This document shows positions 12,285 to 58,529 of a stretch of DNA of 64,000 nucleotides, piece by piece (the stretch's first letter is position 1; every line of letters begins with the position of its first letter). Under the pieces are notes generated by a model. That model was not told where the DNA came from. It saw only the letters and a program-made list of their open reading frames with translations, and did not search any database. The position numbers and the translations under genes were made by a program. Source of the DNA: Vicinamibacterales bacterium (GTDB lineage: Bacteria > Acidobacteriota > Vicinamibacteria > Vicinamibacterales > 2-12-FULL-66-21); assembly GCA_036556425.1 (NCBI GenBank), contig DATBJJ010000006.1, positions 4,266 to 68,265 of the forward strand, written 5' to 3'.

Positions 12285-12312
12285 GGTCCGCCAACGCCGC
12301 GACTTCTTCAAG

Positions 12313-12348
12313 GGGCCTGACCTCACAAGGTCAGGCCCTTTGCTTTTG
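12313..12348 (+). terminator. Rho-independent terminator
   Basis: gggcctgacc / tcacaa / ggtcaggccc, a perfect 10-bp stem, followed by tttgcttttg. It lies 29 nt after the stop of the PEP-CTERM gene. Confidence 0.75.
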
Positions 12349-12524
12349 TCGCCTGTCGCGGGACCAAAAGTCCTCCTGGGGAGAGACAAATGTCCGCGCC
12401 GGGAGGTCCAGCGGCGACGAAATCGGAGTAGGATCGCGAGGAATGCTCCGTTTTTCACGTGTTTTCAACGAAATCCCGCAGCCTGGGACACGGAGCGGTG
12501 TTTGCTCTCGTCTAGCTGGTTCCA

Positions 12525-14807
12525 ATGACACAGCGATTTTGGTACGTCTGCCTCGTCCTCGCCCTGGCCTTGCCCGGGCTGTCGGCCTGCGGGAATCCGG
12601 CCGCGAAAAAGCAGAAATATCTCGAGAGCGGCAACGCCTACTTCAAGAACGAGAAGTACCGCGAGGCGGCGATCGAGTACCGCAACGCGATCCAGATCGA
12701 CGCGAATTTCGGCGAGGCGCGCCGGAAATTGGCCGAGACCTACGAGCGGCTCGGCGACCTGCCAAACGCGCTCGGCGAATACGTGCGCGCGGCCGATCTC
12801 CTGCCGGGCGACGCCGAGGTTCAGTTGAGCGCTGGAAACTACCTGCTGGCGGCGCGCAAGTTCGACGACGCGCGCGCCCGGGCGGAGGCGGTGCTGCAGA
12901 CGGACGCGAAGAACGTCAAAGCGCAGGTGCTCCTCGGCAATTCGCTCGCGGGCCTCAAGAACTTCGACCAGGCGATCGAGGAAATCGAAGAAGCGATCAG
13001 AATCGATCCCACGCGCGGTCCAACGTACACGAGCCTTGGCGTGTTGGAGATGGCGCGCGGCAAGGCGGAGGCGGCTGAGGCCGCGTTCAAGAAGACGGTT
13101 GCGCTCGACCCGAAATGGGTGCCGGGGCGACTGGCGCTCGCGAACCACTATTGGTCGGTGGGACGCGCGGCGGAAGCGGAAAGCGAGCTCAAAGCGGCGC
13201 TCGCGCTCGAGCCCGGGAATCCAGTGGCGAACCGCGCGCTCGCGATCTTCTACATCGCCAACGATCGCGGCGCGGATGCCGAGCCGTATGTCGCCGCGCT
13301 CGTGAAGTCGGGCGCGTCGCCGTTCGCGCTCGCAGATTTCTATCTGCTGAGAAACCGCCCCGACGATGCCATCGCGCAGCTCCAGCGGATCCGCTCGGAC
13401 GGAAGATCCGGTAGCGACGCCGCGCACCGCCTCGCGCAGGCATACGCGATCCGCGGCAACTACGACGAAGCGCACCGCGTCCTCGGCGAGATCTTGAAGA
13501 AGGATCCGAAGGACAGCGAGACGATTCTGCAGACTGGTCAACTGCTGGCGCAGGAGGGCAAGCGCGACGAAGCGCTCGCGCAATTCAAAGCGGCCGCCGA
13601 GATCGACCCGAATTCCGCGCAGCTGCAGTTCGCCTTGGGCAGAAGCTATGCGGCGCGCGGCGACATGGATCAGGCGCGCCAGGCGTACAACGAAGTGCTG
13701 CGGCTCAATCCGCGCGCGGCGCGCGCGCAGCTCGAGATCGCGCGTCTCGATCTCGTGGCCGGGAAGCCGCAGGCCGCGATTCAAAACGCTCGCGACGCGA
13801 TCCGCAACGAGCCCGAGAACGTGGAAGCGCAGATCGCCCTCGTCCGGGGCCTCGTCGCGAACCGCGAGATCGCGGCCGCGGAGCGACAGCTCGATCCGCT
13901 GCTTCAAGCGCACCCGAAGGTCGCCACGCTGCACGTGCAACGCGCGTTGATCGCGGTCGCGAAGAGCGACAGCGGCGCCGCGCGGCGCGCGTTCGAAGAA
14001 GCGTTTCGCCTCGACCCGCACTCCGCTGAAGCACTCGGCGGGCTCGTCGCCCTCGATACGGCGAGCGGCAATCATGCCGCGGCGCGTTCGCGTCTGGATG
14101 CCGCGCTGAAAACGCGTCCCGATCGACCCGAGCTCCTGTTGATTGCGGCGCGCGCCGAAGCGGGCGCCAAGGACTTTCCTGCCGCCGAACGATCGCTGAG
14201 GCGCGCGGTACAAATCGATCCGTCGCTGCTCACCGGGTACGTCATGCTCGGCCAGCTGTACTACTCGCAAGGCCGGCTGGACGATGCGCGGCGTGAATTC
14301 GAGACGCTGGCGGAACGGCAAGCGAAACCGGTCGCGGCGCTCACCATGCTCGGCATCATCGCGCAAGCGCAGAACAACCCCGAGCTCGCGCGCAAGAGCT
14401 TCGAGCGGGTGATCGATATCGATCCGCGCGCCCCCGTCGCGGCGAACAACTTGGCGTGGATGTACGCCGAGCGCGGCGAGCGCCTCGACGTCGCGCTCGA
14501 GCTCGCCAAAGCGGCAGCCGACGCGCTGCCGAAGATGGCGGAAGTCCGCGACACGCTCGGCTGGGTCTACTACAAGCGGCAGACGAGCGATCAAGCGATC
14601 GCGGCGCTTCAGGAAAGCGTCCGCCTCGACCCGCGGAATCCGACCTATCACTACCATCTCGGACTCGCATACGTCCAGGATGGAAATGTCGCGCGCGCTC
14701 GTGAATCCCTCGAACGCGCGCTGTCGCTTCCACGGTTCTCCGCGGAAGCGGACGCCCGCCGCGCCTTGGCGGGCCTGGCGGCGACGCCGGCGTCGGCGGG
14801 ACGATAG
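12525..14807 (+). CDS. prsT: PEP-CTERM-system TPR-repeat lipoprotein (PrsT-like)
   Basis: 760 aa with a lipobox (LPGLSAC) and wall-to-wall TPR repeats. The N-terminal pattern (YLESGNAYFKNEKYREAAIEYRNAIQIDANFGEA) is typical of the PrsT family associated with exosortase loci. Confidence 0.8.
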   Translation: MTQRFWYVCLVLALALPGLSACGNPAAKKQKYLESGNAYFKNEKYREAAIEYRNAIQIDANFGEARRKLAETYERLGDLPNALGEYVRAADLLPGDAEVQLSAGNYLLAARKFDDARARAEAVLQTDAKNVKAQVLLGNSLAGLKNFDQAIEEIEEAIRIDPTRGPTYTSLGVLEMARGKAEAAEAAFKKTVALDPKWVPGRLALANHYWSVGRAAEAESELKAALALEPGNPVANRALAIFYIANDRGADAEPYVAALVKSGASPFALADFYLLRNRPDDAIAQLQRIRSDGRSGSDAAHRLAQAYAIRGNYDEAHRVLGEILKKDPKDSETILQTGQLLAQEGKRDEALAQFKAAAEIDPNSAQLQFALGRSYAARGDMDQARQAYNEVLRLNPRAARAQLEIARLDLVAGKPQAAIQNARDAIRNEPENVEAQIALVRGLVANREIAAAERQLDPLLQAHPKVATLHVQRALIAVAKSDSGAARRAFEEAFRLDPHSAEALGGLVALDTASGNHAAARSRLDAALKTRPDRPELLLIAARAEAGAKDFPAAERSLRRAVQIDPSLLTGYVMLGQLYYSQGRLDDARREFETLAERQAKPVAALTMLGIIAQAQNNPELARKSFERVIDIDPRAPVAANNLAWMYAERGERLDVALELAKAAADALPKMAEVRDTLGWVYYKRQTSDQAIAALQESVRLDPRNPTYHYHLGLAYVQDGNVARARESLERALSLPRFSAEADARRALAGLAATPASAGR

Positions 14808-14837
14808 CGCGCCTAATCCACGTGACTCGGGAGCAGC

Positions 14838-15818
14838 ATGTTTTCAAGTGAAGTTCTACGGATCGATGCGCCGCAGGTTGCGGCTCGGATTGAAGAAGCG
14901 ATTCGCGCGCAGGTGCTCACGTCGCTGCGCCGCCGCGGCATTGTCGTCGGCGTGTCGGGCGGAATCGACAGCTCGGTCGTGACGACGCTCGCCGCGCGCG
15001 CGCTTGGTCCGACCAAGGTGCTCGCGCTGCTGATGCCGGAGCGCGACTCGTCGTCCGACTCCGCGCAGCTCGGACGTCTGCTGACGACGGCGCTGGGCGT
15101 GCCGACAATCGTCGAAGAGTTGAGCGAGATCCTGCAGGCGGCCGGCTGCTATCGGAGGCAGAACGAAGCGATCCGAACTGTGTTCCCCGACTTCGCCGAC
15201 GAGGACCGGTTCAAGATCACGCTGCCGTCGATCCTCGACGGCGATCGATTGAACGTGTCCGAGCTCACGATTCAGCGTCCCGACGGCACGCAGGCAACGG
15301 CGCGCATGCCGCTCGCCGCGTACCTCCAGATGATCGCGGCCACGAACTTCAAGCAGCGGTTCAGAAAGCTGATGGAGTACTACCACGCGGATCGGCTGAA
15401 CTATGCCGTCGCCGGCACGCCGAATCGCCTCGAATACGACCAAGGGTTTTTCGTGAAGCAGGGAGACGGCGCCGCCGATCTCAAGCCGATCGCGCATCTG
15501 TACAAATCACAGGTGTATGCGCTCGCCGAGTACCTCGGCGTTCCGGCGGAGATTCGCAAGCGTCCGCCGACGACGGACACGTTCTCGCTGCCGCAGACGC
15601 AGGAGGAGTTCTACTTCGCGCTGCCCTACGACAAGATGGACCTTTGCCTGTACGCGCGGAACAACAACGTCTCGGCCGCCGAAGCGGCGCCCGCCGTGGG
15701 CCTGACGCCTGAACAGGTGGAGCGCGTCTTCAAGGACATCGATCAGAAGCGGCGCACGACGAAGTACCTGCACGCGCGTCCACTGCTCGTGGAACACGTG
15801 TCGGAGATCATGACCTAA
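14838..15818 (+). CDS. NAD synthetase-family PP-loop ATPase (NadE-like)
   Basis: 326 aa with the PP-loop SGGIDSS. NadE-like C-terminal elements are present (KQGDGAADLKPI, YKSQVY.LAEYLGVP). The stop overlaps the asnB-like start (TAATG). Confidence 0.75.
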   Translation: MFSSEVLRIDAPQVAARIEEAIRAQVLTSLRRRGIVVGVSGGIDSSVVTTLAARALGPTKVLALLMPERDSSSDSAQLGRLLTTALGVPTIVEELSEILQAAGCYRRQNEAIRTVFPDFADEDRFKITLPSILDGDRLNVSELTIQRPDGTQATARMPLAAYLQMIAATNFKQRFRKLMEYYHADRLNYAVAGTPNRLEYDQGFFVKQGDGAADLKPIAHLYKSQVYALAEYLGVPAEIRKRPPTTDTFSLPQTQEEFYFALPYDKMDLCLYARNNNVSAAEAAPAVGLTPEQVERVFKDIDQKRRTTKYLHARPLLVEHVSEIMT

Positions 15819-17833
15819 TGTGCGGCATCGCCGGCGTCATCGCGCTGCGTGACGATCTGCCGCCTGCCGACATCAACGAGGCTGCGCGGATGGCCGGCGC
15901 CCTCCGTCATCGCGGACCGGATGAATTCGGCCTGTACCGGGATCGATTGGCGGCGCTCGCGCACGCGCGGCTCTCGATCATCGATCTGAGCGCGGGGCAA
16001 CAGCCGCTCAGCAACGAAGACGGCACGTGGTGGATCGTCTTCAACGGCGAGATCTTCAACTACATCGAGCTGCGCCAGGAGCTCGAAGCGCACGGACACG
16101 TCTTCCGCACGAAGAGCGACACGGAAGTCATCGTTCACGCGTACGAGCAGTGGCAGGACGACGCGTTCAGGCGGTTCAACGGCCAGTGGGCGCTGGCGCT
16201 GTGGAACGCGTCGACGTCGACGCTGGTCCTCGCGCGCGATCCGTTCGGCGTGCGGCCGCTGTATGTGGCCGAGCATGGCGGCCGCCTGTTCTTCGCGAGC
16301 GAAGTCAAGGCGATGTTCGCGGCGGACCCGACGCTGCCGCGGCGGTTCGATCCCGCTGGCCTCGATCAGCTCTTCACCTTCTGGACGCCCGTGGCGCCTC
16401 AAACGATCTTCGACGGCATCGAGGAAATCGAGCCGGGAACGACGCGCACCTACACGCGCGGCGCGCTCGTGCGTCAGAGCCGATGCTGGTCCCGCGCGTA
16501 TCCGGCGTCAGACGGGGCGGCGTACGCGGGCACGCTCGATGACGCCGTTCAGGAAGTGCGCGCGGGACTGGAGCGCGCCACGAGCCTTCGCATGCTGCGC
16601 GCCGACGTGCCTGTCGGCAGTTATCTCTCCGGCGGGCTCGACAGCTCGCTCGTCGCGGCCCTCGGGCTCCGCGCGAAGGGCGCCAAGTTCTCCACGTTCT
16701 CGCTGCGGTTCGAAGACGCCGAGTACGACGAGACGCAGTATCAGCGTGAGATGTCGGCGTATCTGCAGAGCGATCACCACGAGGTGCTCGTCTCGAGACG
16801 CGATATCGCGCGCGTATTCCCCGACGTGATCTTTCATACGGAGCGGCCCGTGCTCCGGACCGCGCCCGCGCCGCTGTTTCTTCTGTCGCGGCTCGTTCGC
16901 GACGCCGGCATCAAAGTCGTCCTCACCGGCGAAGGCGCCGACGAGATGTTCGCGGGCTACGACTTGTTCCGTGAAGCGAAGGTCCGGCGTTTCTGGGCGC
17001 GTCAGCCGGCGTCGCTGCGGCGGCCGAAGCTTCTCGAGCGGCTGTATCCCTACCTGCAACGATCGCCGGTCGCGCAGCAGGCGATCATGCGTCAGTTCTT
17101 CGGGCAAGGACTGGACCGTGCCTCGGCGCCGGGCTTCGGGCACGAACCTCGCTGGCGTGGCGCGTCGGCACTGAAGCGCCTGCTCGCCGGTGACATGCGT
17201 CCGCGCGCCGGCACGCCGGACTCACGCGATGCGCTGATCGCGGCGCTCCCGTCCGAGTTCAGCAATTGGAGTCCGCTCGCGCAGGATCAGTACCTCGAGA
17301 CGCATACGCTTTTGTCCGGCTACCTGCTGTCGTCGCAGGGCGACCGCATGCTGATGGCCAACTCCGTCGAGGGACGCTTCCCCTTCCTCGATCGGCATGT
17401 CGTCGCGCTCGCCGAATCGCTGCCGGCGTCGTACAAGCTGCGCGTCCTCGACGAGAAGCACGTGTTGAAGAAGGCGGCGGCCGGGCTCGTGCCGCCCTCG
17501 ATTCTCGGGCGAAAGAAGCAACCGTATCGCGCGCCCGATGCTCTGTCTTTCGCGGAGCCCGAGGCGTCGGACTGGATCGAGGAAGTCGCAAGCGCGCGCG
17601 CGCTGTCCGAGGCAGGTGTATTCGATCCGGCGGGCAGCCGGCGCCTGCTCGACAAGTGCCAATCGCGCGCCGCAGCGGGTCAGTTCTCGAACGCCGACAA
17701 CATGGCGGTCGTCGGCATCCTGTCCGCGCAGCTCGTCCACCACCATTTCATTCGGACTCGTCCCGAGGGCTGCCCGCCGGCCCACGTGCGGACGATCGTG
17801 GACCGGCTCGGTACGCCCCTCGAGGCTGTCTGA
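15818..17833 (+). CDS. asparagine synthase (glutamine-hydrolysing) family amidotransferase, copy 1
   Basis: 671 aa with the N-terminal nucleophile MCGIAG and a synthetase-domain PP-motif (SGGLDSS). Confidence 0.9.
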   Translation: MCGIAGVIALRDDLPPADINEAARMAGALRHRGPDEFGLYRDRLAALAHARLSIIDLSAGQQPLSNEDGTWWIVFNGEIFNYIELRQELEAHGHVFRTKSDTEVIVHAYEQWQDDAFRRFNGQWALALWNASTSTLVLARDPFGVRPLYVAEHGGRLFFASEVKAMFAADPTLPRRFDPAGLDQLFTFWTPVAPQTIFDGIEEIEPGTTRTYTRGALVRQSRCWSRAYPASDGAAYAGTLDDAVQEVRAGLERATSLRMLRADVPVGSYLSGGLDSSLVAALGLRAKGAKFSTFSLRFEDAEYDETQYQREMSAYLQSDHHEVLVSRRDIARVFPDVIFHTERPVLRTAPAPLFLLSRLVRDAGIKVVLTGEGADEMFAGYDLFREAKVRRFWARQPASLRRPKLLERLYPYLQRSPVAQQAIMRQFFGQGLDRASAPGFGHEPRWRGASALKRLLAGDMRPRAGTPDSRDALIAALPSEFSNWSPLAQDQYLETHTLLSGYLLSSQGDRMLMANSVEGRFPFLDRHVVALAESLPASYKLRVLDEKHVLKKAAAGLVPPSILGRKKQPYRAPDALSFAEPEASDWIEEVASARALSEAGVFDPAGSRRLLDKCQSRAAAGQFSNADNMAVVGILSAQLVHHHFIRTRPEGCPPAHVRTIVDRLGTPLEAV

Positions 17834-19386
17834 TGGTGCACCGGCTGCTCGAAGACGCCGCCGCGCTGTCGCCAGGGGCGGTCGCCCTCATCGAGCCGCG
17901 CCGAACGATCACGTACGCGGAGCTCAATCGGCTCGCGAATCGGTACGCGCATCTGCTGATCGCGACCGGTGTGCGCCGCGGCGATCGCGTCGTGATGGCG
18001 CTCGAGAACAGCACGGACCTCGTCGCACTGTATTTCGGTACGCTGAAAGCGGGCGCGATTGCGGTGCCGCTGCCGGCGGGACCTCGCAGCGATCGACTCG
18101 TGCGGGCGGTCGTCGACAGCAGCCCGGCGGTCGCCGTTGTCGATCCGGCGACGGCGCACGAGATCTCGTCAACGCATCCGCTCGCGTCGGTGCCGTCGTT
18201 GTTCGTCTCGTCCAACGTCGTGCTGACGCCCGGCCGGGGCGTGTCGTACGCGCGATTGCAGGACGCCGTCCAATCGGTCTCGGACGGTCCGGTAGACGTG
18301 CGGTCGATCGATGTCGATCTTGCCGCGATCATCTATACGTCGGGCAGCACGGGCGAGCCTCGCGGCGTGATGCTCAGCCATCGGAATTTCGTCGCGAACA
18401 CGCAGTCGATCGTGCAGTACCTCCGGCTGACGTCGCACGATCGCGTCATGTGCGTGCTGCCGTTCTATTACGTGTACGGGCTGTCGCTGCTCCACACGCA
18501 CATCGCCGTCGGCGGATCGATCGTGATCGACAACCGGTTCGCGTTTCCGAACGTGGTTCTCAACGCGATGCAGCAGCATCGCGTGACGGGATTCGCCGGC
18601 GTGCCGTCGACGTTCGCGCTCCTTCTTCACAGATCCGGACTGCAGGACGTGACGCTGCCGCATCTCCGCTACGTCACGCAGGCCGGCGGCGGTATGGCTC
18701 CCGCGCGCGTCCTCGAGTGGCTCGAGCGGGGACCGCGCGTGCCGTTCTACGTCATGTACGGCGCGACCGAGGCGTCAGCGCGGCTCACGTATCTCGATCC
18801 TGCGAGGCTGCGCGACAAGCTCGGCTCGATCGGCCGTCCGATCCCGAACGTCGACATCGTCGTCGTCACCGAACAGGACACGATTGCCGACACCGGCGAG
18901 ATTGGAGAGCTCGTCGCGCGCGGCACGAACATCTCGCGCGGCTACTGGAACGATGAAGAAGAGACGCGCCAGAAGTTTGGACCGCGCGGCTACTACACGG
19001 GCGATCTCGGCTACGCCGACGAAGAAGGGTTCCTCTTTCTCGTCGGCCGCAAGCACGACATGCTGAAGGTCGGCGCGCATCGCGTCGGCGCCAAGGAAAT
19101 CGAGGACGTGCTTCAGGGATTTCCGGGGCTCCACGAAGTCGCGGTCGTGCCGGCACCGCACGCCATTCTCGGCGAGGTCCCCGTTGCGTTCGTCTCGATG
19201 CGCGACGGAGAGGCGGCGGACGCGGAAGGGCTCGGCGCGTTCTGCCGCGCGCGTCTGCCGCCGCACAAAGTGCCCACGGGGTTCTTCCTCCGCACCGAGC
19301 TGCCGAAGCTGGGAACGGTCGGAAAGATCGACAAGGTCCGACTTCGGGAGGAGGCGCGCGCATCCGTTGCCGACGCAACGGCGTGA
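17833..19386 (+). CDS. AMP-dependent acyl-CoA/acyl-carrier ligase (ANL family), copy 1
   Basis: ORF 17266..19386 trimmed to MVHRLLEDAA... (ATG 17833, a TGATG overlap with asnB). ANL motifs: YTSGSTGEPRG, GYWNDEE, TGDLGY and the C-terminal K (GKIDK). Confidence 0.9.
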   Translation: MVHRLLEDAAALSPGAVALIEPRRTITYAELNRLANRYAHLLIATGVRRGDRVVMALENSTDLVALYFGTLKAGAIAVPLPAGPRSDRLVRAVVDSSPAVAVVDPATAHEISSTHPLASVPSLFVSSNVVLTPGRGVSYARLQDAVQSVSDGPVDVRSIDVDLAAIIYTSGSTGEPRGVMLSHRNFVANTQSIVQYLRLTSHDRVMCVLPFYYVYGLSLLHTHIAVGGSIVIDNRFAFPNVVLNAMQQHRVTGFAGVPSTFALLLHRSGLQDVTLPHLRYVTQAGGGMAPARVLEWLERGPRVPFYVMYGATEASARLTYLDPARLRDKLGSIGRPIPNVDIVVVTEQDTIADTGEIGELVARGTNISRGYWNDEEETRQKFGPRGYYTGDLGYADEEGFLFLVGRKHDMLKVGAHRVGAKEIEDVLQGFPGLHEVAVVPAPHAILGEVPVAFVSMRDGEAADAEGLGAFCRARLPPHKVPTGFFLRTELPKLGTVGKIDKVRLREEARASVADATA

Positions 19387-19402
19387 ACCAGCGCAATCGC
19401 GC

Positions 19403-20041
19403 ATGACGACCGTCGATCGCTTCCTTCACTCCGTTCTGACGCATCCCCTTGCGATGTCGCTCAAGCGACCGCTCAAGGATCTCTGGTGGTGGGCATCAGG
19501 ATGGCGCTTCGCGAATCCATCGATTCCGGCGAGGATCGATTCGATTCTGTTCGTCTGCCACGGCAACATCTGTCGAAGTCCGTTTGCCGCCGATCTCGCG
19601 GCGAAGCTTCTGCGAGGCGAGGGACATCGCCACGTCCGCTGCGCCTCGGCGGGCATCCGAACGAATCCCGCGTCGCGTCCCCCGTCGGAAGCCATCGAAG
19701 CTGCCGCGGTCTTCGGCGCGTCGTTCGACAATCATCAACCGCTTCAAGTGAGCGACGACGTGATCGCGGCGTTCGATCTCGTCGTGGTGATGGAAGCCGC
19801 GCACGCGGCGGAGCTCCGGCGGCGATACCCACAGGCGGCAAAGCGAATCGTGCTGCTCTCGCTGCTGGACGACTCCGCAAGCGGCAGCTACGCACGCTAC
19901 AACATCGCGGATCCGTTCGGGCAGCCGTTCGCCACGTTCGTCGACTGCTACCGGCGCATCAAGCGGGCACTGACGAATCTCGTCACGCGGCTCGAGGTCG
20001 AGGAATATCAGGCGGCCGCATCAGGAGGCCGCCGCTCGTGA
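19403..20041 (+). CDS. low-molecular-weight protein-tyrosine phosphatase
   Basis: ORF 19184..20041 trimmed to ATG 19403. P-loop CHGNICRSP, and a downstream DP motif (ADPFG). Confidence 0.85.
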   Translation: MTTVDRFLHSVLTHPLAMSLKRPLKDLWWWASGWRFANPSIPARIDSILFVCHGNICRSPFAADLAAKLLRGEGHRHVRCASAGIRTNPASRPPSEAIEAAAVFGASFDNHQPLQVSDDVIAAFDLVVVMEAAHAAELRRRYPQAAKRIVLLSLLDDSASGSYARYNIADPFGQPFATFVDCYRRIKRALTNLVTRLEVEEYQAAASGGRRS

Positions 20042-21531
20042 TGCCGCTGACCCTGGGCCTCGGAGGCGTACGACGGCACGCGTGCGCCGCGGTGGCGGAT
20101 CGCCACGACGTCCTCAGCGTGTGCGAGCAGGAGCGCATCACGCGCGTCCGGGGCGCGGGCTACAACGGGACGGGGCTGCCGGACGAAGCGGTGGATGCCG
20201 CGCTGGCATCCGTCGGCGCGGCCCGGTCCGACGTCACGATGTGCGCCGTCGCGGAAGAAGTCGCAGCGGAGCTTCCGTGGCCGACCGAGCGGTTCAATCA
20301 TCATCACGCGCACGCGTGCGCGGCCTATTTGACGTCGCCGTTCCAGTCGGCCGCGATTCTCGTGTGCGATCACGAGCCTCCCGGAGTGAGCGTGTGGGTT
20401 GGAAACGGCCCGGACGTACAACGCATCGATTGGCCCTGGACCGGGCCCAGCATTTCGGCTTTGTACACCGAGTGCGCGCGCCTTTTCGGCTTTACGGCGA
20501 CGGGCGGCGATCAGATGTTCGAGGCGCTCGCTCGACTGATGATGTCGGATCCCGACGACCGCCTGCCTGTGATCTTCAGCACGGATGGCGCGGCGATCGA
20601 AGAGCAGCCGGACTGGCGATCGATCGTGAAAGAGCTGTTGGCATCGCCGCGCGTGACCGCGAAGGCTCGCGTCGCCGCCGCGGTTCAGCGACAGATCGAG
20701 CGGCTTGCCGTGGAGGTCCTCGCCAGAATTCAGACGGCAACGGAACGATCGGTCGTCTGCCTCGGGGGAAGTCTCTTCTATCACTCGTCGATCAACACAG
20801 CAGTCCGTCAGTCGGGGCTGTTCGAGCGCGTCTTCGTTCCGGCGAATCCCGGCAACGCCGGACTCTCGGTCGGCGCCGCGATGCGCGCATCGCAGCTTGC
20901 GCCGCGCCGCGTGTCGGCGTTCCTCGGCCCCTCGTACGATCCGGACGCGATCAAGGCCACGCTCGACAACTGCAAGCTGCGCTACGACTGGGTGGAAGAA
21001 GGAGCCGCGATTCGAACAGCGGTGAAGCACCTGACGCAAGGGCGGCTCGTCGGATGGTTCGAAGGGCGAATGGAGTGGGGGCCACGCGCGCTGGGCGCGC
21101 GCTCGATTCTCGCGAGCCCGTTTCATCCGCACGTGCTCGAGAACTTGAATCGCTTCTTGAAGCGCCGCGAGGAGTGGCGCGGATACGCGGTCAGCGTCCT
21201 CGACGAGGCGCTATCGACGCACTTCTCCGGGCCGGCGGAGGCGCCGTTCATGGAATGCGATTACCGGCCGAAGGATGCCGGCGCGTTTCGATGGGCGCTG
21301 CCGTCGCCCTGTGCGGCGATCCGCGTGCAGACCGTCGGAGCGGACTCGCCCCCGAGATATCGCGAGCTCGTGAGGGCCTTCGGCGAGGTGACCGGCGTTC
21401 CCTGCGTCATGAATACCTCGTTCAATGGATTCCACGAGCCGATCGTCTGCACGCCCCGCGATGCGGTCCGCGTCTTCTACGGATCCGGACTCGACGTGCT
21501 GCTGCTCGACCGATTCGAGCTCACGAAGTGA
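20041..21531 (+). CDS. carbamoyltransferase (NodU/CmcH family), short divergent paralog
   Basis: ORF 19486..21531 trimmed to MPLTLGLGG... (ATG 20041, a TGATG overlap). It retains HHHAH, GRMEWGPRALGARSIL and NTSFNGFHEPIV. 496 aa. Confidence 0.8.
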   Translation: MPLTLGLGGVRRHACAAVADRHDVLSVCEQERITRVRGAGYNGTGLPDEAVDAALASVGAARSDVTMCAVAEEVAAELPWPTERFNHHHAHACAAYLTSPFQSAAILVCDHEPPGVSVWVGNGPDVQRIDWPWTGPSISALYTECARLFGFTATGGDQMFEALARLMMSDPDDRLPVIFSTDGAAIEEQPDWRSIVKELLASPRVTAKARVAAAVQRQIERLAVEVLARIQTATERSVVCLGGSLFYHSSINTAVRQSGLFERVFVPANPGNAGLSVGAAMRASQLAPRRVSAFLGPSYDPDAIKATLDNCKLRYDWVEEGAAIRTAVKHLTQGRLVGWFEGRMEWGPRALGARSILASPFHPHVLENLNRFLKRREEWRGYAVSVLDEALSTHFSGPAEAPFMECDYRPKDAGAFRWALPSPCAAIRVQTVGADSPPRYRELVRAFGEVTGVPCVMNTSFNGFHEPIVCTPRDAVRVFYGSGLDVLLLDRFELTK

Positions 21532-21545
21532 GGGTGTAACGCCGC

Positions 21546-23372
21546 ATGCGCGACGAGTACATTCTGGGCATCTCGGCGTTCTACCACGACAGCGCGGCGT
21601 GTCTCGTGCGCAACGGCGAGATCGTCGCGGCCGCTCAAGAGGAACGCTTCACGCGCAAGAAGGGGGATTCGGGCTTCCCCGCGCGCGCGGTGGACTACTG
21701 CTTGAGCGTCGCAGGCGTGCGCATGCCGGACATCGACTACGTTGGTTTCTACGACAAGCCGCTCGTGAAGTTCGAGCGCATTCTCGAGACGTATCTCGGC
21801 GTCGCGCCGCGCGGATTCCCCTCCTTCATGCTCGCCGGTCCTCTCTGGATCAAGGACAAGCTGTACATGGACCGGCAGCTCCGGCAGGAGCTCGGCTTCC
21901 ACGGCGAGGTCTTGTACGCGGAGCATCACGAATCGCACGCCGCCAGCGCGTTCTACCCGTCGCCGTTCGACGAAGCGGCGATTCTGACGATTGACGGCGT
22001 CGGCGAATGGGCGACCGCGTCGATCGGCGTCGGCCGCGGCAACGAGCTCCGGATCCTCGACGAGCTGCATTGGCCGGATTCTCTTGGCCTGCTCTACTCC
22101 GCGTTCACGTACTACACCGGGTTCAAGGTCAACTCGGGCGAGTACAAAGTGATGGGGCTCGCGCCGTACGGCGAACCCAAGTACGTCGACGTCATCTACA
22201 ACGAGCTGATGGATCTTCGCGACGACGGATCGTTCAGGCTCAATCAGAAGTACTTCAACTACCTCACCGGCCTGACGATGACGAACGGCGCGTTCGAGAA
22301 GCTGTTCGGCGGGCCGCCGCGCACACCCGAGACGAAGCTGACGCAGAAAGAAATGGATCTTGCGCGCTCCGTGCAGGTCGTCTGCGAAGAAGTGATGCTG
22401 CGCATGGCGCGCACGGCGCATCGGCGGACCGGACTCGAGAACCTGTGCCTCGCCGGAGGCGTCGCGCTGAATTGCGTCGGCAACGGACGTCTCCTTCGCG
22501 AGGGACCGTTCAAGCGGCTCTGGATTCAGCCGGCGGCCGGAGATGCGGGCGGCGCGCTCGGCGTCGCGCAGCTGATCAACCATCGCTATCGCGGACGTCC
22601 GCGGAACGTCACGCCGAACCAGGATTCGATGAAGGGTTCCTATTTGGGACCGGCGTTCAGCGAAGCGGAGATCGCGCGATTCCTCAAGACCGTCGGTGCG
22701 CCGGCGTCGAGGATCGACGGCGATGCGCTTCCCGGGCGCGTCGCGGATCTATTGGCGAACGAGAAGGTCGTGGGATGGTTCGACGGCCGCATGGAGTTCG
22801 GTCCGCGGGCGCTCGGCGCGCGCAGCATCCTCGGGGATCCCCGCAGCCCGCGCATGCAGGCGCAGATGAACATCAAGATCAAGTTCCGCGAAGGCTTCAG
22901 GCCGTTCGCGCCGTCGGTGCTGCGCGAGCGCGTCTCCGACTACTTCGATCTCGATACCGATTCGCCATACATGCTGCTCGTCGCGCCCGTTTGCGAAGAG
23001 CGGCGCATTCCGCTCTCCGAGGCGCAGCACACGCTCTGGGGCATCGACAAGCTGAACGTGCCGCGCTCCGACATCCCGGCCGTCACGCACATCGACTACT
23101 CCGCGCGCGTGCAGACGGTCACGCACGAGACTAATCCTGGCTACTACGATCTGATCAAGGCCTTCGACGCGAAGACCGGATGCCCGGTCGTCGTCAACAC
23201 GTCGTTCAACGTCCGCGGCGAGCCAATCGTCTGCACGCCCGAGGACGCGTATCGCTGCTTCATGCGCACCAACATCGATTACCTGGTGCTGGGTCCCTAT
23301 CTGCTCGACAAGTCCGCCCAGCCGGCATACAAGGACACGCAGGAATGGCAGAAAGAATTCCAGCTCGATTGA
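21546..23372 (+). CDS. carbamoyltransferase (NodU/CmcH/TobZ family)
   Basis: 608 aa with ILGISAFYHDSAA, EHHESHAASAF, GRMEFGPRALGARSILGDPR and NTSFNVRGEPIVCTPEDA. Confidence 0.92.
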   Translation: MRDEYILGISAFYHDSAACLVRNGEIVAAAQEERFTRKKGDSGFPARAVDYCLSVAGVRMPDIDYVGFYDKPLVKFERILETYLGVAPRGFPSFMLAGPLWIKDKLYMDRQLRQELGFHGEVLYAEHHESHAASAFYPSPFDEAAILTIDGVGEWATASIGVGRGNELRILDELHWPDSLGLLYSAFTYYTGFKVNSGEYKVMGLAPYGEPKYVDVIYNELMDLRDDGSFRLNQKYFNYLTGLTMTNGAFEKLFGGPPRTPETKLTQKEMDLARSVQVVCEEVMLRMARTAHRRTGLENLCLAGGVALNCVGNGRLLREGPFKRLWIQPAAGDAGGALGVAQLINHRYRGRPRNVTPNQDSMKGSYLGPAFSEAEIARFLKTVGAPASRIDGDALPGRVADLLANEKVVGWFDGRMEFGPRALGARSILGDPRSPRMQAQMNIKIKFREGFRPFAPSVLRERVSDYFDLDTDSPYMLLVAPVCEERRIPLSEAQHTLWGIDKLNVPRSDIPAVTHIDYSARVQTVTHETNPGYYDLIKAFDAKTGCPVVVNTSFNVRGEPIVCTPEDAYRCFMRTNIDYLVLGPYLLDKSAQPAYKDTQEWQKEFQLD

Positions 23373-23752
23373 GCGCGGCCGAAGGCCGACGCTTCGGGCT
23401 CACCGTCGGCGCGGCGTTCCTCGTGCTCGCCGCGATTGCCTGGTGGCGCGGCCACGTGGTGGCGCCCACAGTGCTCTCGACCGTGGGCGGCCTCCTCGTC
23501 GCGGCGGGCATCGTCGTGCCAACGCTGCTCGGACCGGTCCAGCGCGGATGGATGGCGCTGGCGCACGCAATCTCGAAAGTGACGACGCCCATCGTGATGG
23601 GCGCGATTTATCTCATCGTCCTGACCCCGGTCGGCGTTCTTCGGCGTCTCGTCTCGGGCAACCCTCTCGTTCACGGCGTGAAGTCGACGACGTACTGGCA
23701 CCATCGGCCCGAACGGCCGCGCCCGCCGTCGTCGATGCAGCGGCAATTCTAG
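23345..23752 (+). CDS. SxtJ-family small membrane protein
   Basis: ORF 23180..23752 trimmed to MAERIPARLSAAEGRRFGLTVGAAF.... It has three hydrophobic helices and sits directly after a carbamoyltransferase, as SxtJ-type genes do. Confidence 0.65.
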   Translation: MAERIPARLSAAEGRRFGLTVGAAFLVLAAIAWWRGHVVAPTVLSTVGGLLVAAGIVVPTLLGPVQRGWMALAHAISKVTTPIVMGAIYLIVLTPVGVLRRLVSGNPLVHGVKSTTYWHHRPERPRPPSSMQRQF

Positions 23753-23765
23753 CGAGGAGCGTTCG

Positions 23766-23924
23766 ATGGCAAGTTCAAGCTGGATCGGCGAGCTCTGGGC
23801 GTTCATGCGCGAGCGGAAGAAGTGGTGGCTCCTCCCGGTCATCGTCGTGATGGTCGTGGTGGGGACGCTGCTCATCTTCGCGCAGGGATCCGTGCTGGCG
23901 CCGTTCATCTACACGATCTTCTGA
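23766..23924 (+). CDS. DUF5989-like 52-aa membrane peptide (not in the supplied ORF track)
   Basis: Hand translation gives MASSSWIGELWAFMRERKKWWLLPVIVVMVVVGTLLIFAQGSVLAPFIYTIF then TGA at 23922-23924. This peptide type commonly follows carbamoyltransferase/SxtJ pairs. Confidence 0.6.
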   Translation: MASSSWIGELWAFMRERKKWWLLPVIVVMVVVGTLLIFAQGSVLAPFIYTIF

Positions 23925-23934
23925 GCGAATCGCT

Positions 23935-25002
23935 TTGCGACTTTTCAAGGCGGTACTCTTCCGGCTCATCGCGGTTGGAATCGCGACGACGGTCTCGCTG
24001 ATCGCCGCCGAGCTGGTGCTGCGCCTCTCGGCGGCGAGCCAGTACGTCTATCAGGATCCGGTGCTCTTCTCGGATCCGGTGACGTACGTGCCGAATCAGG
24101 TGGGGTACCACCAACTCGCGCGCGAGTTCAACATTCAGATCAAGATCAATTCGCGGGGTTTCCGCGACACCGAGTACACGCCCGCGCCGGAGGCGCGGAC
24201 CATCGTCACGCTGGGAGATTCGTTCACCGAGGGGTTTGGCGTGGACGCGGAGGCCGTCTGGTCGAAGCGCCTGCAGGAGCGGGTCGTCCGCGACCGCCTC
24301 GCGTACGAGCACGTCTACAACGCCGGCCACAGTGGAACGAATCCGAAGAACTACCGAGCGGTCTACGAGCACTTCTTCAAGAACGATCCGCACGTGCAGT
24401 TGGTCGTCATCGGATTCTGCCTCGCGAACGACATCGTCGAGGAGTCCACGCCGGTCAATCTGCGGCCGCAGCGCGCGCCCAAGAAGGGCCTGAACTATGT
24501 ACTAAGCAAGTATTCGATCATCTACAACCTCGCCAGGAGCCGCCTCCGGTACGACCGGCGCCTCGAGCGCGTGATGGCGAAGTTCGGCCTGACCAATCCG
24601 CCGATCATCACGACGGATCTCTTGAACAACGAGGAGAATCGCCGGCGATGGCCGTACGCGGTCCAGTTCCTGACGGACTTCGCGCGCGAGATCAACGCCG
24701 ACGGCAAGAAGGTCCTGATCGTGTTCATCCCGTCGAAGGAGCTCGTGCTGGACGATTACTTCGACACGCTGCTCAAGGTGACGGAGACGCCGCCGGCGAG
24801 CATCGATCGATACGGGTTCCGCGACTACGCGCTGGACCGCTTCCAGCGGGCGCAAGTGCCGGTGCTCGACCTCACGCCCGCGTTGAGGGCGCAGCGCACG
24901 GCTGACCTCTATTTCGTCGGGGACGGGCACTGGAACCCCGCAGGACATCAGTTCGCGGCGGACACCATCTACGAGTACCTTTCACGGCACGGTCTGCTCT
25001 GA
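23935..25002 (+). CDS. SGNH/GDSL-type hydrolase or O-acyl esterase with N-terminal membrane anchor
   Basis: 355 aa with a block I GDSFTEG and a C-terminal DGHWN (DxxH) block. Confidence 0.75.
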   Translation: MRLFKAVLFRLIAVGIATTVSLIAAELVLRLSAASQYVYQDPVLFSDPVTYVPNQVGYHQLAREFNIQIKINSRGFRDTEYTPAPEARTIVTLGDSFTEGFGVDAEAVWSKRLQERVVRDRLAYEHVYNAGHSGTNPKNYRAVYEHFFKNDPHVQLVVIGFCLANDIVEESTPVNLRPQRAPKKGLNYVLSKYSIIYNLARSRLRYDRRLERVMAKFGLTNPPIITTDLLNNEENRRRWPYAVQFLTDFAREINADGKKVLIVFIPSKELVLDDYFDTLLKVTETPPASIDRYGFRDYALDRFQRAQVPVLDLTPALRAQRTADLYFVGDGHWNPAGHQFAADTIYEYLSRHGLL

Positions 25003-25040
25003 GGGCGCGCAATTCTGTTACGTGACCGCACGGCGCGCCC
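25003..25040 (+). terminator. GC-rich hairpin immediately after the operon stop codon
   Basis: gggcgcgc (25003-25010) pairs with gcgcgccc (25033-25040) across a 22-nt loop. There is no clear U-tract. Confidence 0.35.
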
Positions 25041-25090
25041 GTCGAGCTTGTTGATTCCACTGGAATTACCGCTCTTTTCTCGATCACCCG

Positions 25091-25105
25091 TGGCATAGAC
25101 CTTGC
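25091..25105 (+). promoter_or_regulatory. candidate sigma-54 promoter TGGCAT-AGACC-TTGC
   Basis: It differs from the consensus TGGCAC-N5-TTGC at one position. It is intergenic, about 215 nt upstream of the beta-helix gene. Confidence 0.5.
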
Positions 25106-25116
25106 CTGACCACAGG

Positions 25117-25148
25117 ACGGCCGAGCAAGCGTTTGGCCGGCCGTTTTT
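25117..25148 (+). terminator. hairpin plus T5 (terminator of the upstream operon, or a leader attenuator)
   Basis: acggccg (25117-25123) pairs with cggccgt (25138-25144), followed by ttttt. Confidence 0.45.
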
Positions 25149-25318
25149 CGAGATTCAGCGAAAAAGTCCAAGAAAACTGGTGGGGTCCCATCGGGGTGCC
25201 GCCGCGGCAGCTTGTAGGATTTATACGAATCGCCGCAAGCACCGTGTAGCGGCTTACGGTTGTGTAACGGATGAGGCCGACGTAGGGCACCTCCAAAGCG
25301 ATACGAGGTAAGGAGATC

Positions 25319-58501: not shown

Positions 58502-58529
58502 GCTCGTTCCGTATGTCTTCGATCGCGCG

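Follow-up and report, generated by a model that had tools for sequence, protein, structure and literature searches.

A ten-gene block within an acidobacterial exosortase locus reads as a mosaic of conserved modules

The ten genes at positions 12525-25002 of the window, the 64,000-nt stretch of DNA that was analysed, are best explained as a co-transcribed mosaic block that tailors an exosortase-associated glycan, a reading to which we assign a probability of roughly 0.55. By family composition and conserved order, the block is a mosaic of conserved modules rather than a single novel pathway, its four parts being a PrsT-like lipoprotein (g1), a NadE/AsnB/ANL set (g2-g4, module A), a phosphatase (g5), and a short carbamoyltransferase followed by a carbamoyltransferase-SxtJ-DUF5989-SGNH series (g6-g10, module B). 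Its most likely role would be to decorate a surface sugar polymer with amide, acyl and carbamoyl groups. What was observed is which genes are present, how they are ordered and packed, where the block is bounded, what is conserved and what co-occurs.

All ten genes lie on the plus strand and are co-directional, with a shared coding signature (GC3 of 0.80-0.88, GC2 lowest, in a genome of 65% GC), and profile searches reproduced all ten family assignments. The successive junction gaps from g1 to g10 are 30, -1, -1, 16, -1, 14, -28, 13 and 10 nt, so that the largest intergenic gap is 30 nt and four junctions overlap: three at stop/start codons (TAATG at 15816 for g2/g3, TGATG at 17831 for g3/g4 and TGATG at 20039 for g5/g6), and one of 28 nt, where g8 starts inside the end of g7. 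The original prediction of genes linked by gaps of 30 nt or less or by overlapping codons was thus borne out on recomputation, as was its gene order, with one exception: the SxtJ gene (g8) does not come after g7 but begins within its last 28 nt. The same overlap is kept in two relatives (loci L082 and L083).

The terminator and hairpins proposed as boundaries were also recovered. An intrinsic terminator at 12309-12352 (plus strand), with a 15-bp stem containing nine G-C pairs and then a T tract, closes the upstream PEP-CTERM gene (11598-12284) and forms the 5' boundary; the segment 12285-12365 folds at -47.3 kcal/mol (z = -6.95 versus shuffles). The 3' boundary consists of hairpins at 25003-25149 (plus strand), the last being a 9-bp stem at 25118-25139 followed by GCCGTTTTTC (stem and T run spanning 25118-25149); here, the segment 24995-25160 folds at -66.4 kcal/mol (z = -3.5), and the next gene begins 316 nt beyond g10. 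Terminator-like matches across the scanned region were not above chance (14 versus 9.6 +/- 3.4 expected), and those inside the block had short stems only.

Conservation in relatives bears on whether the ten genes act as one. The backbone order PrsT-NadE-AsnB-ANL, inserts, phosphatase (in some), short carbamoyltransferase, carbamoyltransferase, SxtJ and DUF5989 recurs wholly or partly in loci L001, L003, L064, L082, L083 and L084, with identities of 51-91%. It is found in other Vicinamibacterales contigs with varying inserts, and, where the source is named, the closest homologues all come from this order of Acidobacteriota. The source of the window is a soil acidobacterium. In relatives, 3-5 kb of other genes separate the ANL ligase from the phosphatase or short carbamoyltransferase, and the tails differ, so the ten genes are not the single indivisible unit first supposed. 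Promoters may accordingly exist inside the block, and the ten genes may not all share one transcript, given that genes inserted between modules in relatives imply function without co-transcription of all ten; against this stand the tight packing with its four overlaps and the restriction of strong terminators to the flanks. The block is probably a real, co-transcribed unit.

The block sits within a large exosortase/PEP-CTERM EPS locus, with PEP-CTERM proteins on both of its flanks and, on the minus strand, XrtW, FemAB, an XrtA-type deacetylase, a priming glycosyltransferase, a flippase and many glycosyltransferases. The exosortase had been taken for XrtA, but it scores below the XrtA cut-off (195 versus 208 bits) and passes that of XrtW (58530-60230, minus strand; NF038142, 463 versus 425), with a fused EpsI domain (TIGR02914, 74). 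The FemAB-family XrtA-associated protein (57476-58585, minus strand) passes its own model (TIGR03019, 316 versus 260). At the head of the block, g1 (12525..14807, 760 aa) encodes a PrsT-like TPR lipoprotein that exceeds the TIGR02917 cut-off (328 versus 312.2 bits, matching model positions 7-534 of 899), matches many TPR families in Pfam and begins with a hydrophobic segment and an LSAC lipobox; in L001, L082 and L104, homologues sharing 47-57% identity with it occur close to the same genes.

Module A comprises a NadE-like PP-loop ATP pyrophosphatase of the PRK00876 type (g2, 14838..15818, 326 aa), an AsnB-like glutamine amidotransferase/synthetase (g3, 15818..17833, 671 aa) and an ANL (adenylate-forming) ligase (g4, 17833..19386, 517 aa; AMP-binding and AMP-binding_C in Pfam). 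Hydrophobic segments are absent from g2 and g3, and g4 has none at its N-terminus. The first two may be a housekeeping NAD(+) synthase and asparagine synthase, as they pass the curated cut-offs of models to which NCBI gives these names (NF002048, 517.5 versus 313 bits, with the SGGxDS motif present; TIGR01536, 523 versus 267 bits). The best solved relatives of g2 are NH3-dependent NAD synthetases, matched in two stretches. It shares 58-62% identity with nadE of rhizobial plasmid asnB-ACP-ANL-nadE clusters. The identity of g3 is 47-62% to AsnB from these quartets and just 33% to the other AsnB encoded in the window; among solved structures it is closest to a hydroxyamidotransferase (7YLZ). Both g3 and g4 fall below the cut-offs of the XrtA-associated models (TIGR03108 amidotransferase, 406 versus 817; TIGR03098 ligase, 363 versus 592). 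Among solved structures, g4 most resembles an NRPS adenylation domain (LgrA) and malonyl-CoA synthetase, and in all six backbone loci listed above its position is taken by homologues with 59-69% identity.

The gene set had been thought to match no described pathway; however, g2-g4 are homologous to genes of the Sinorhizobium meliloti pSymB quartet asnB-ACP (SMb20651)-ligase (SMb20650)-nadE, of which module A is the equivalent minus the acyl carrier protein (ACP). An ACP gene is missing from the ten-gene block itself. In the window, the best matches to the quartet ligase and ACP are encoded next to the exosortase, at a distance of about 35 kb from the block: a second ANL ligase (60110-61663, minus strand; TIGR03098, 502, below the cut-off of 592), which is 37% identical to g4, and an ACP with a PP-binding domain (61653-61928, minus strand). 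In tblastn searches of the S. meliloti and Mesorhizobium loci, these two reached 49-53% and 46-48% identity, respectively, both above g4. The quartet's ACP and ligase have already been studied (PMC7232532; Ramos-Vega 2009 cited therein); the ACP was acylated upon co-expression with its ligase, which could not replace FadD (PMC7232532). Gene order varies among nadE-asnB-ANL-ACP on a Mesorhizobium plasmid, asnB-ACP-ANL-nadE adjoining GT1 glycosyltransferase genes on a Shinella plasmid, and ACP-asnB-ANL-nadE in locus L088; module A is thus conserved across phyla. Within 12 kb of the S. meliloti quartet there are no exosortase/EPS genes, its neighbours being minCDE and ABC-transporter genes.

Enzymes of the TobZ/NodU family form carbamoyl-AMP from carbamoyl phosphate and ATP and then O-carbamoylate a hydroxyl group. 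Two such proteins are encoded in module B, both with catalytic motifs kept and without hydrophobic segments. The full-length NodU/CmcH/TobZ-type, SxtI-like enzyme (g7, 21546..23372, 608 aa; Carbam_trans_N 329 bits, Carbam_trans_C 251 bits) has 7XB6, GdmN, the novobiocin carbamoyltransferase and TobZ as solved relatives. Its short paralogue (g6, 20041..21531, 496 aa), 27% identical to g7 and from a family of about 500 aa throughout, retains a whole YrdC-like C-terminal domain (Carbam_trans_C, 160 bits) and a shortened Kae1-like N-terminal domain (Carbam_trans_N merely 58 bits, profile positions 130-346); HxxxH and one Asp are conserved in this family, and 109 of 120 members carry Asn where g7, 7XB6 and GdmN have Asp.

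The remaining three products are membrane proteins: an SxtJ-family protein with three hydrophobic segments (g8, 23345..23752, 135 aa; PF19588, 38.2 versus 24.4), from a family of 5135 clusters (50% identity) at E <= 1e-3; a single-pass DUF5989 peptide (g9, 23766..23924, 52 aa; PF19451, 86 versus 27), SxtK-like by position and size, with a basic RERKK stretch preceding the transmembrane segment, and with a core (E-LW-F-RKKWWLLP...APFIYT-F) conserved in 34 sequences; and an SGNH/AlgX-like esterase or transferase with an N-terminal transmembrane anchor (g10, 23935..25002, 355 aa; PF16822 (ALGX), E = 1e-13; Lipase_GDSL_2, E = 5e-11), which keeps its catalytic motifs, the GDS, N and D-x-H motifs being conserved in 34 homologues, and occupies the SxtL position. 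Genes g7-g10 share the sxtI-sxtJ-sxtK-sxtL order and gene sizes of the saxitoxin cluster (PMC2679770, PMC2684587), with sxtI of 1839 bp against 1827 bp for g7, sxtJ of 405 against 408 bp for g8, and sxtK, a 165-bp ORF 3' of sxtJ, against 159 bp for g9 (PMC2679770). In saxitoxin synthesis, SxtI/J/K act on a small alkaloid rather than on a glycan. Across 167 fetched loci, SxtJ/DUF5989 occurred within 2.5 kb of all 18 g7-type enzymes (at least 55% identity to g7, with enough flank) and near none of 73 distant ones, so this partnership is obligate; an SGNH gene lay within the same radius in 12 of the 18.

The link to the exosortase system was upheld within the lineage and failed as a general rule. 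In L097, L099 and L101 (Acidobacteriota), the short carbamoyltransferase gene lies 11-15 nt after a pepcterm FemAB gene (TIGR03019, 357-367 bits versus a cut-off of 260), preceded directly in L097 and L101 by an XrtA deacetylase gene (TIGR03006, 392-397 bits versus 276), and in L019 FemAB and deacetylase genes lie about 7 kb from it. Because the short carbamoyltransferase follows curated XrtA-system genes in these other contigs, the tie of the carbamoyl module to the exosortase system is real in this lineage. Neither cassette is intrinsically dedicated to exosortases, since both occur away from exosortase/EPS genes: module A in S. meliloti, and the carbamoyl cassette in Pelagibacterales, a Gemmatirosa plasmid, a DPANN archaeon and saxitoxin clusters.

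Between the modules, g5 (19403..20041, 212 aa) encodes a low-molecular-weight phosphotyrosine-phosphatase-family protein (PF01451, 91 bits) with catalytic motifs kept (CHGNICRS, a CX5R(S) P-loop, and DP) and an N-terminus free of hydrophobic segments. Its start is most likely the ATG at 19403, giving an N-terminal extension of about 48 aa, because homologues in L082 and L084, where they sit directly 5' of the short carbamoyltransferase, measure 219 and 225 aa. No BY-kinase partner was found in the window. Originally counted among the modification enzymes, g5 is more likely regulatory.

For the tailoring block as a whole, we infer every substrate and product; amidation, acylation and O-carbamoylation of EPS or its cargo are read from family membership. 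The NadE-like and AsnB-like proteins would act as ATP-dependent, carboxylate-activating amidating enzymes in cooperation with the adenylate-forming ligase, and the ligase would load an acyl or an aminoacyl group, with the ACP next to the exosortase as the most likely recipient. The product may be an acyl or aminoacyl substituent that bears an amide, a uronamide made from a uronic acid, or both; uronamide sugar synthesis has been proposed for AsnB-like enzymes (PMC7468200). The cytoplasmic carbamoyltransferases would use carbamoyl phosphate and ATP, via carbamoyl-AMP, to O-carbamoylate hydroxyls of a membrane-associated substrate such as a lipid-linked sugar, held or presented by SxtJ and DUF5989, and g10 may edit or transfer ester groups on the membrane's outer face. 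The phosphatase could regulate the export machinery in the manner of Wzb, and PrsT could provide the PEP-CTERM system with its TPR lipoprotein scaffold. The target would be an exosortase-associated glycan, either the EPS repeat unit or a sugar acceptor that the XrtA-type deacetylase and FemAB make ready; aminoacylation of the T9SS linking sugar by a FemAB-like enzyme has been proposed, and the same authors suggested the exosortase analogy (PMC7468200). Both cassettes are already known elsewhere, and the ten genes join them within an exosortase locus.

The ten plus-strand genes between 12525 and 25002 are read here, with a probability of roughly 0.55, as a co-transcribed mosaic that tailors an exosortase-associated glycan, each chemical detail of this reading being much less certain. 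In order, the genes encode a PrsT-like protein (g1), a NadE-like enzyme (g2), an AsnB-like amidotransferase (g3), an ANL ligase (g4), a low-molecular-weight phosphatase (g5), a short carbamoyltransferase (short CT, g6), a full-length carbamoyltransferase (CT, g7), SxtJ (g8), DUF5989 (g9) and an SGNH hydrolase (g10); g2-g4 are referred to as module A and g6-g10 as module B. Gene content, order, packing, conservation and co-occurrence were observed directly, together with predicted membrane segments and retained catalytic motifs.

With a GC content of 64-68%, the window fills mechanical ORF lists with spurious frames, and genes were called by codon-position GC. Ten genes with GC3 values of 0.80-0.88 fill the interval 12525-25002, in agreement with the original prediction of a ten-gene run on this strand. 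The expected gaps of 30 nt or less were borne out by junctions of 30, -1, -1, 16, -1, 14, -28, 13 and 10 nt (overlaps in four of the nine cases), and the quoted stop/start overlaps lie exactly where they had been placed, TAATG at 15816 and TGATG at 17831 and 20039. All the family names were reproduced by Pfam and NCBIfam. The gene order likewise stood as listed, except that SxtJ begins within the 3' end of g7, creating a 28-nt overlap that is also present in the related loci L082 and L083. The start of the phosphatase gene g5 is most likely ATG 19403, giving an N-terminal extension of about 48 aa.

The block is bounded upstream by the anticipated terminator at 12309-12352, where a stem of 15 bp precedes a T tract (fold z = -6.95), and downstream by the anticipated hairpins at 25003-25149, one of which has a stem of 9 bp and a T run behind it. 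Long-stem terminator-like sites were located only at 12309 and 25118, the hits within the block having stems of 5-7 bp, and the number of terminator-like hits in the scanned region did not exceed chance (14 found, 9.6 +/- 3.4 expected). A sigma-70 scan of the plus strand upstream of g1 yielded no promoter-like site, and a weak sigma-54-like GG-N10-GC site was recognised there by eye only. Across the window, the sigma-54 pattern TGGCAC-N5-TTGCW, with up to two mismatches, was not enriched (17 hits against 18.2 expected). Its sole well-placed hit, TGGCAT-AGACC-TTGC at 25091-25106 on the plus strand, falls outside the block, in the 316-nt spacer after g10, and is followed by the T-run hairpin at 25118-25149, an odd arrangement in which a promoter would precede a terminator-like hairpin. 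The gene downstream of both (25319-26809) encodes a He_PIG and beta-helix protein with a hydrophobic N-terminus. At gathering thresholds, Rfam gave no match anywhere in the window.

The window is a single large exosortase/PEP-CTERM exopolysaccharide (EPS) locus, which runs beyond its end at 64000. Two PEP-CTERM proteins flank the block (11598-12284 and 28181-28870), each with VPEP, a hydrophobic segment and basic residues at its C-terminal end. Between 29 and 64 kb, the minus strand carries stp-type GT4 enzymes, an O-antigen-ligase-like protein, a flippase, deacetylases, methyltransferases, hydrolases of types 1 and 2, an ATP-grasp protein, a second AsnB and an aminotransferase, alongside the exosortase-linked genes: FemAB (TIGR03019, 316 bits against a cut-off of 260), an exosortase-EpsI fusion, the second ligase ANL2, an acyl carrier protein (ACP), an XrtA-system deacetylase (TIGR03006, 393 bits against 276) and an EpsB_2 priming transferase. 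The exosortase (58530-60230, minus strand) had been taken for an XrtA-type enzyme; it scores instead as XrtW (NF038142, 462.6 against 425), the XrtA model TIGR03109 reaching 194.6 against 208, and its fused EpsI domain scores 74 bits with TIGR02914. Apart from XrtW, the locus resembles an XrtA locus. Among homologues of named origin, the nearest all came from Vicinamibacterales (Acidobacteriota).

Other features of the locus include a second SGNH enzyme, fused to a DUF218 (ElyC-like) domain, in the minus-strand cluster (48689-50110, minus strand) and a GGDEF protein (8262-9773). Two small plus-strand ORFs at 10898-11155 and 11256-11534, which may not be genes, lie in the extended intergenic region that precedes the PEP-CTERM gene and had no family match above cut-off; one of them ends in ...AAPEPVWMMVWGVGLLALASGVRSFLVRRH, where a PEP motif, a hydrophobic segment and a basic end resemble a miniature PEP-CTERM protein.

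The PrsT assignment of g1 is marginal (TIGR02917, 328 bits against 312.2; model positions 7-534 of 899 matched by a protein of 760 aa), and the protein shows many TPR families, an N-terminal hydrophobic segment and an LSAC lipobox. PrsK was not found in the window, and a divergent sigma-54 activator lacking a receiver domain (5776-6978, minus strand) scores below the PrsR cut-off (268 against 502.6), a stand-alone response-regulator receiver being encoded separately at 5361-5750 on the plus strand, upstream of the locus. The phosphatase g5 (PF01451, 91 bits) retains CHGNICRS, the CX5R(S/T) P-loop, and IADPFG, with the DP general-acid motif, and scores 51-53 bits with the Wzb equivalog models, far below their cut-offs of 243-247. 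Its retained motifs would most simply make it a Wzb-like regulator, though a tyrosine kinase partner (BY-kinase, Wzc-like) was found nowhere among the window genes.

To place the block in a comparative context, neighbourhoods were fetched for homologues of g6, its most specific gene, from metagenome contigs, from a genome collection in which each species is represented once and from a scan of metagenomes (167 loci, designated by L numbers). Window proteins were mapped onto these loci by tblastn and by iterated HMMs over six-frame ORFs, tblastn alone having missed diverged SxtJ and DUF5989 proteins; the 80 loci obtained with the g6 profile in the genome collection, mostly distant CTs without the other genes, served as a negative control. 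The backbone PrsT-NadE-AsnB-ANL...(phosphatase)-short CT-CT-SxtJ-DUF5989 recurred, whole or partial, in L001, L003, L064, L082, L083 and L084, at 51-91% identity to the window proteins and 80-91% for g7 and g9. Relatives carry 3-5 kb of extra genes downstream of the ANL ligase, before the phosphatase or short CT is reached, encoding FemAB-like Acetyltransf_6 proteins, GT2, a VanZ-TPR protein, an acyl-CoA dehydrogenase, ACP and another ligase, and their tails past DUF5989 vary (ATP-grasp, GT4 or glyoxalase); the window holds the most compact version. The junction is an insertion hotspot in L082 (5071-9345) and L083 (1310-9978), with an 875-aa protein also present and two Acetyltransf_6 genes in L082.

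Such variability bears on the possibility, which we consider rather unlikely, that modules A and B are independent neighbours and that their tight packing reflects a hotspot gathering envelope-modification genes rather than one pathway; module A would then produce a lipid or small molecule that contains an amide and is bound to ACP, presumably as in rhizobia lacking neighbouring exosortase genes, and module B would carbamoylate an unrelated target. Each module does occur alone elsewhere, the inserts and differing tails of the relatives would be expected of such an assembly, and the two modules have opposite orientations in L002, L088 and L008. Nevertheless, despite rearrangement, no more than about 10 kb separates them in at least eight Vicinamibacterales/Acidobacteriota loci, the junctions in the window are overlapping or 16 nt long, and the genes inserted in the relatives (FemAB-like, GT2, ACP, ligase) are themselves glycan-tailoring genes, all of which argues against independence.

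Within module B, g7 is a two-domain NodU/TobZ-type enzyme (Pfam domains of 329 and 251 bits), comparable with NodU, NolO, TobZ and GdmN in that both domains are full length and the protein can be aligned with solved members from one end to the other; each of the four named enzymes acts by itself on soluble substrates, whereas the g7 subfamily always comes with SxtJ and DUF5989. The adjoining g8 matches the SxtJ family (PF19588, 38.2 against 24.4) and is followed by g9, a DUF5989 ORF of 52 aa (86 bits against 27), 10 nt past which g10 begins. Considering the CTs at least 55% identical to g7 and with at least 1 kb of flank, SxtJ and/or DUF5989 lay within 2.5 kb in 18 out of 18 cases and an SGNH gene in 12 of them, whereas SxtJ/DUF5989 was near none of the 73 CTs under 44% identity to g7. 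The trio is ordered either CT-SxtJ-DUF5989 or SxtJ-DUF5989-CT, and its hosts include Pelagibacterales (L043), a Gemmatirosa kalamazoonensis plasmid (L087; 76, 54 and 69% identical to the window), a Nanobdellota archaeon (L054) and Fibrobacteria (L065). A nearby SGNH gene accompanies the trio in the DPANN archaeon MAG (L054 9745-11832) and in the Pelagibacterales MAG (L043 8132-12599), the fetched flanks of which gave no match to the exosortase-locus queries XrtW, FemAB, ANL2 and ACP. The SxtJ family comprises 5135 clusters at 50% identity (E <= 1e-3), and a literature search for DUF5989 found no papers.

In relatives, an ATP-grasp gene of "carbamoyl phosphate synthase-like" type follows CT-SxtJ-DUF5989, directly or past one or two genes (L001 13914-15206; L083 15142-16401; L064 16290-17363), and a counterpart 28-29% identical lies in the minus-strand cluster of the window (45982-47661, minus strand). 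It is conceivable that the ATP-grasp enzyme helps to supply the carbamoyl donor.

The short CT g6 represents a well-populated family of proteins of about 500 aa, in which the adenylate-forming YrdC-like domain keeps all its motifs and the Kae1-like domain keeps HxxxH and one Asp. Residue 272 is Asn in 109 of 120 family members, the corresponding residue being Asp in g7, 7XB6 and GdmN (GDAG, SDPG and HDAG motifs); we take this aligned position to be a possible metal ligand of the Kae1-like domain. The family is new, and in related contigs its genes stand directly behind bona fide XrtA FemAB and deacetylase genes. Specifically, the g6-family gene starts 11-15 nt past a TIGR03019 FemAB gene (357-367 bits against 260) in L097, L099 and L101, and this gene is preceded by a TIGR03006 deacetylase gene (392-397 bits against 276) in L097 and L101; in L019, TIGR03019 and TIGR03006 genes lie about 7 kb from the short CT. 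This adjacency is the strongest evidence in support of a carbamoyl module that may work with exosortase core genes in this lineage.

Enzymes of the TobZ/NodU family form carbamoyl-AMP and O-carbamoylate a hydroxyl group. By family, g6 and g7 would do the same, SxtJ and DUF5989, which have three hydrophobic segments and one, respectively, would locate the reaction at the membrane, and g10 would work outside the cytoplasm as an ester-editing or ester-transferring enzyme, the exosortase-associated glycan being the probable target of the block. The g10 protein has an N-terminal anchor and conserved GDS, N and D-x-H motifs, and in Pfam it is matched best by the SGNH domain of AlgX acetyltransferase type; its similarity to solved AlgJ and AlgX is weak (E = 0.03-0.1) and covers the D-x-H region.

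These features could be taken further, to a trans-envelope carbamoylation by module B resembling the O-acetylation machineries of alginate, cellulose and peptidoglycan, an attractive idea that appears improbable to us. After activation in the cytoplasm, SxtJ and DUF5989 would pass the carbamoyl group or a carrier across the membrane and periplasmic g10 would transfer it to the exported polymer, the short paralogue g6 being mainly a carbamoyl-AMP synthase. Besides the AlgX/AlgJ resemblance of g10 and an anchor that would put its domain outside the cytoplasm, such a relay is favoured by the embedding of the SGNH gene within the cassette in many loci (e.g. short CT-SGNH-SxtJ-DUF5989-CT in L099), by the membrane proteins that always accompany g7-type CTs, and by the Asn for Asp in the transfer domain of the g6 family, whose adenylate-forming domain keeps all its motifs. 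A membrane-anchored AlgX/AlgJ-like SGNH protein, small membrane proteins and a supplier of the activated group are shared with the extracytoplasmic AlgI/J/F/X system and its relatives, but there is no membrane protein of the MBOAT or acyltransferase-3 type, and the activated group would be carbamoyl rather than acetyl. Moreover, in TobZ-type enzymes transfer to the acceptor takes place within the same protein, according to structural work on TobZ, and we know of no case of a carbamoyl relay across a membrane. The SGNH gene was also not found within 2.5 kb in 6 of the 18 loci, and saxitoxin carbamoylation is thought to target a soluble intermediate (PMC2679770).

Turning to module A in the proposed tailoring operon, a tblastn search with g2 against 72,556 plasmids matched 117 records at 54-62% identity, mostly Sinorhizobium/Ensifer megaplasmids but also plasmids of Azospirillum, Mesorhizobium and Shinella. 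Annotated contexts read asnB-ACP-ligase-nadE (S. meliloti pSymB, Shinella) or nadE-asnB-ligase-ACP (Mesorhizobium), and L088 has the order ACP-asnB-ligase-nadE. In the window, the PRK00876-type g2 adjoins g3 with a 1-base overlap, the two being 58-62% and 47-62% identical to rhizobial NadE and AsnB, respectively. The best match of the rhizobial ligase is ANL2 (60110-61663, minus strand; 49-53%) and not its paralogue g4, which is 37% identical to ANL2; the rhizobial ACP is 46-48% identical to the only ACP found in the window (61653-61928), the ten block genes having no match to an ACP family. The window thus contains all four members of the quartet, two in the block and two near the exosortase, and has g4 as an additional ligase. 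Compared with the S. meliloti pSymB quartet (NadE-like 58%, AsnB-like 47%, ligase/ANL2 53% and ACP 48% identical), which lies outside any exosortase or EPS locus, NadE and AsnB are thus joined to the paralogue g4, while the best ligase and ACP sit by the exosortase, about 35 kb off. We take the S. meliloti genes to be the SMb20650/SMb20651 operon. According to PMC7232532, which cites Ramos-Vega 2009, the S. meliloti ACP is acylated when co-expressed with the ligase, and the ligase is no substitute for FadD; the function of SMb20650/SMb20651 is still listed as unknown (PMC5686131).

With TIGR03108, g3 scores 406 against a cut-off of 817, and with TIGR03098, g4 scores 363 against 592; their minus-strand paralogues also fall short (497 and 502), and the second AsnB of the window is 33% identical to g3. 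Among solved structures, g3 comes closest to a hydroxamate-forming amidotransferase of a natural-product pathway, and the relatives of g4 range from NRPS adenylation domains, which provide the best match, to malonyl-CoA synthetase. By family, g2 and g3 would be ATP-dependent carboxylate-amidating enzymes, and g4 would adenylate an acid and probably then load it onto a carrier protein. AsnB-like enzymes have been proposed as makers of uronamide sugars (PMC7468200, with its reference to WbpS). The labels "NAD(+) synthase" and "asparagine synthase" probably hide tailoring enzymes here.

Taken literally, these labels would make g2 and g3 a housekeeping NAD synthetase and asparagine synthetase, leaving decoration to the carbamoyl cassette alone, which is very unlikely. 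The cut-offs of NF002048 (g2, 517 against 313) and TIGR01536 (g3, 523 against 267) are passed by a wide margin, and homologues from many contigs share 74-82% identity with g2; this conservation is, however, unexceptional, because g7 and g9 reach equal or higher values (80-91%). In addition, g2 aligns with solved NadE proteins in two stretches separated by an insertion of about 60 aa, stop/start overlaps bind g2, g3 and g4, and NadE/AsnB are linked to an ANL ligase, and usually to ACP, in two phyla, the rhizobial copies residing on accessory replicons. The housekeeping reading was rejected on account of this ligase linkage, conserved across phyla.

The original prediction had recognised no described pathway with this gene set, which does not hold: the tail has the sxtIJKL arrangement and the head corresponds to the S. 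meliloti quartet, both described and neither understood. In the saxitoxin cluster, sxtI-J-K-L has the same order of CT, SxtJ-family membrane protein, ORF of about 50 aa and GDSL/SGNH gene (PMC2679770, PMC2684587), with lengths of 1839, 405, 165 and 1281 bp compared with 1827, 408, 159 and 1068 bp for g7-g10 (PMC2679770). From its position and size, DUF5989 may be equated with SxtK, the direct sequence tie to sxt being the Pfam SxtJ model only, and sxtL is likened to the shorter g10 by position and gene type. SxtI is assumed to work jointly with SxtJ and SxtK, both of which are described as uncharacterised (PMC2885083, PMC2679770), and SxtJ/SxtK-dependent carbamoyl transfer is unproven even for saxitoxin (PMC2885083). 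The settings differ, in that sxt belongs to an alkaloid pathway, whereas the cassette in the window lies in an exosortase EPS locus and is preceded by an extra short CT and a phosphatase. That the block is a fragment of a saxitoxin-like or NRPS-like secondary-metabolite cluster, as its sxtI-J-K-L tail and the best solved relatives of g3 and g4 might suggest, is scarcely credible given some 50 kb of glycosyltransferases, flippase, deacetylases, exosortase and PEP-CTERM proteins around it, and was rejected because no match to NRPS condensation, PKS or sxt-type families other than SxtJ was found among the genes called in the window.

As a whole, the window shares with XrtA/PEP-CTERM EPS loci (Haft 2006, PMC1569441) the PrsT-like protein, FemAB (TIGR03019), the XrtA deacetylase (TIGR03006), EpsB_2, stp-type GT4, hydrolases 1 and 2, a ligase with ACP, and PEP-CTERM cargo. 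It departs from them in its XrtW exosortase with fused EpsI and in g3 and g4, which stay below the cut-offs for the XrtA-associated amidotransferase and ligase; NAD synthase and carbamoyl go unmentioned in Haft 2006 (PMC1569441). Searches of the literature for exosortase together with carbamoyltransferase returned incidental mentions only, and those for acidobacterial exosortase EPS and for EPS carbamoylation returned nothing. A further likeness, in possible working and not in membership, is with the Wbp/Vim pathway for the T9SS linking sugar of Porphyromonas and Tannerella, where a uronic amino sugar is modified by a deacetylase, a FemAB-like aminoacyl transferase and an AsnB-like amidotransferase (PMC7468200). 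This sugar is the acceptor for a sortase-like C-terminal transfer, and a parallel with exosortase loci is drawn in that paper itself (PMC7468200); the pathway is without a carbamoyltransferase, NadE-like enzyme or ligase/ACP.

The block would thus be of a known kind, its comparative context suggesting a glycan-tailoring operon in an EPS locus and no new kind of system. New are the fusion of both cassettes in one tight unit within an XrtW locus and the short carbamoyltransferase family with its position in related contigs. A more specific but improbable proposal is that the SxtI/J/K/L-type cassette, with the short paralogue, is dedicated to carbamoylating a membrane-bound or already exported glycan and that, in exosortase organisms, the acceptor comes from the XrtA-type deacetylase and FemAB. 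By analogy with the T9SS linking sugar, the acceptor might then be an amidated, aminoacylated and carbamoylated uronic amino sugar, to which PEP-CTERM proteins would be attached. If true, this would provide the first function for SxtJ/SxtK, a family of more than 5000 sequence clusters in the case of SxtJ, and would identify the long-sought exosortase acceptor.

The finding leaves existing expectations standing and corrects the automatic names "NAD(+) synthase" and "asparagine synthase". Both cassettes are widespread without a proven function, and conservation of the NadE/AsnB/ligase/ACP quartet extends from rhizobia to Acidobacteriota. Their fusion in this locus, together with the short CT behind XrtA hallmark genes, provides concrete hypotheses on the role of SxtJ/SxtK, the product of SMb20650/SMb20651 and the decorations that exosortase-associated glycans may carry.
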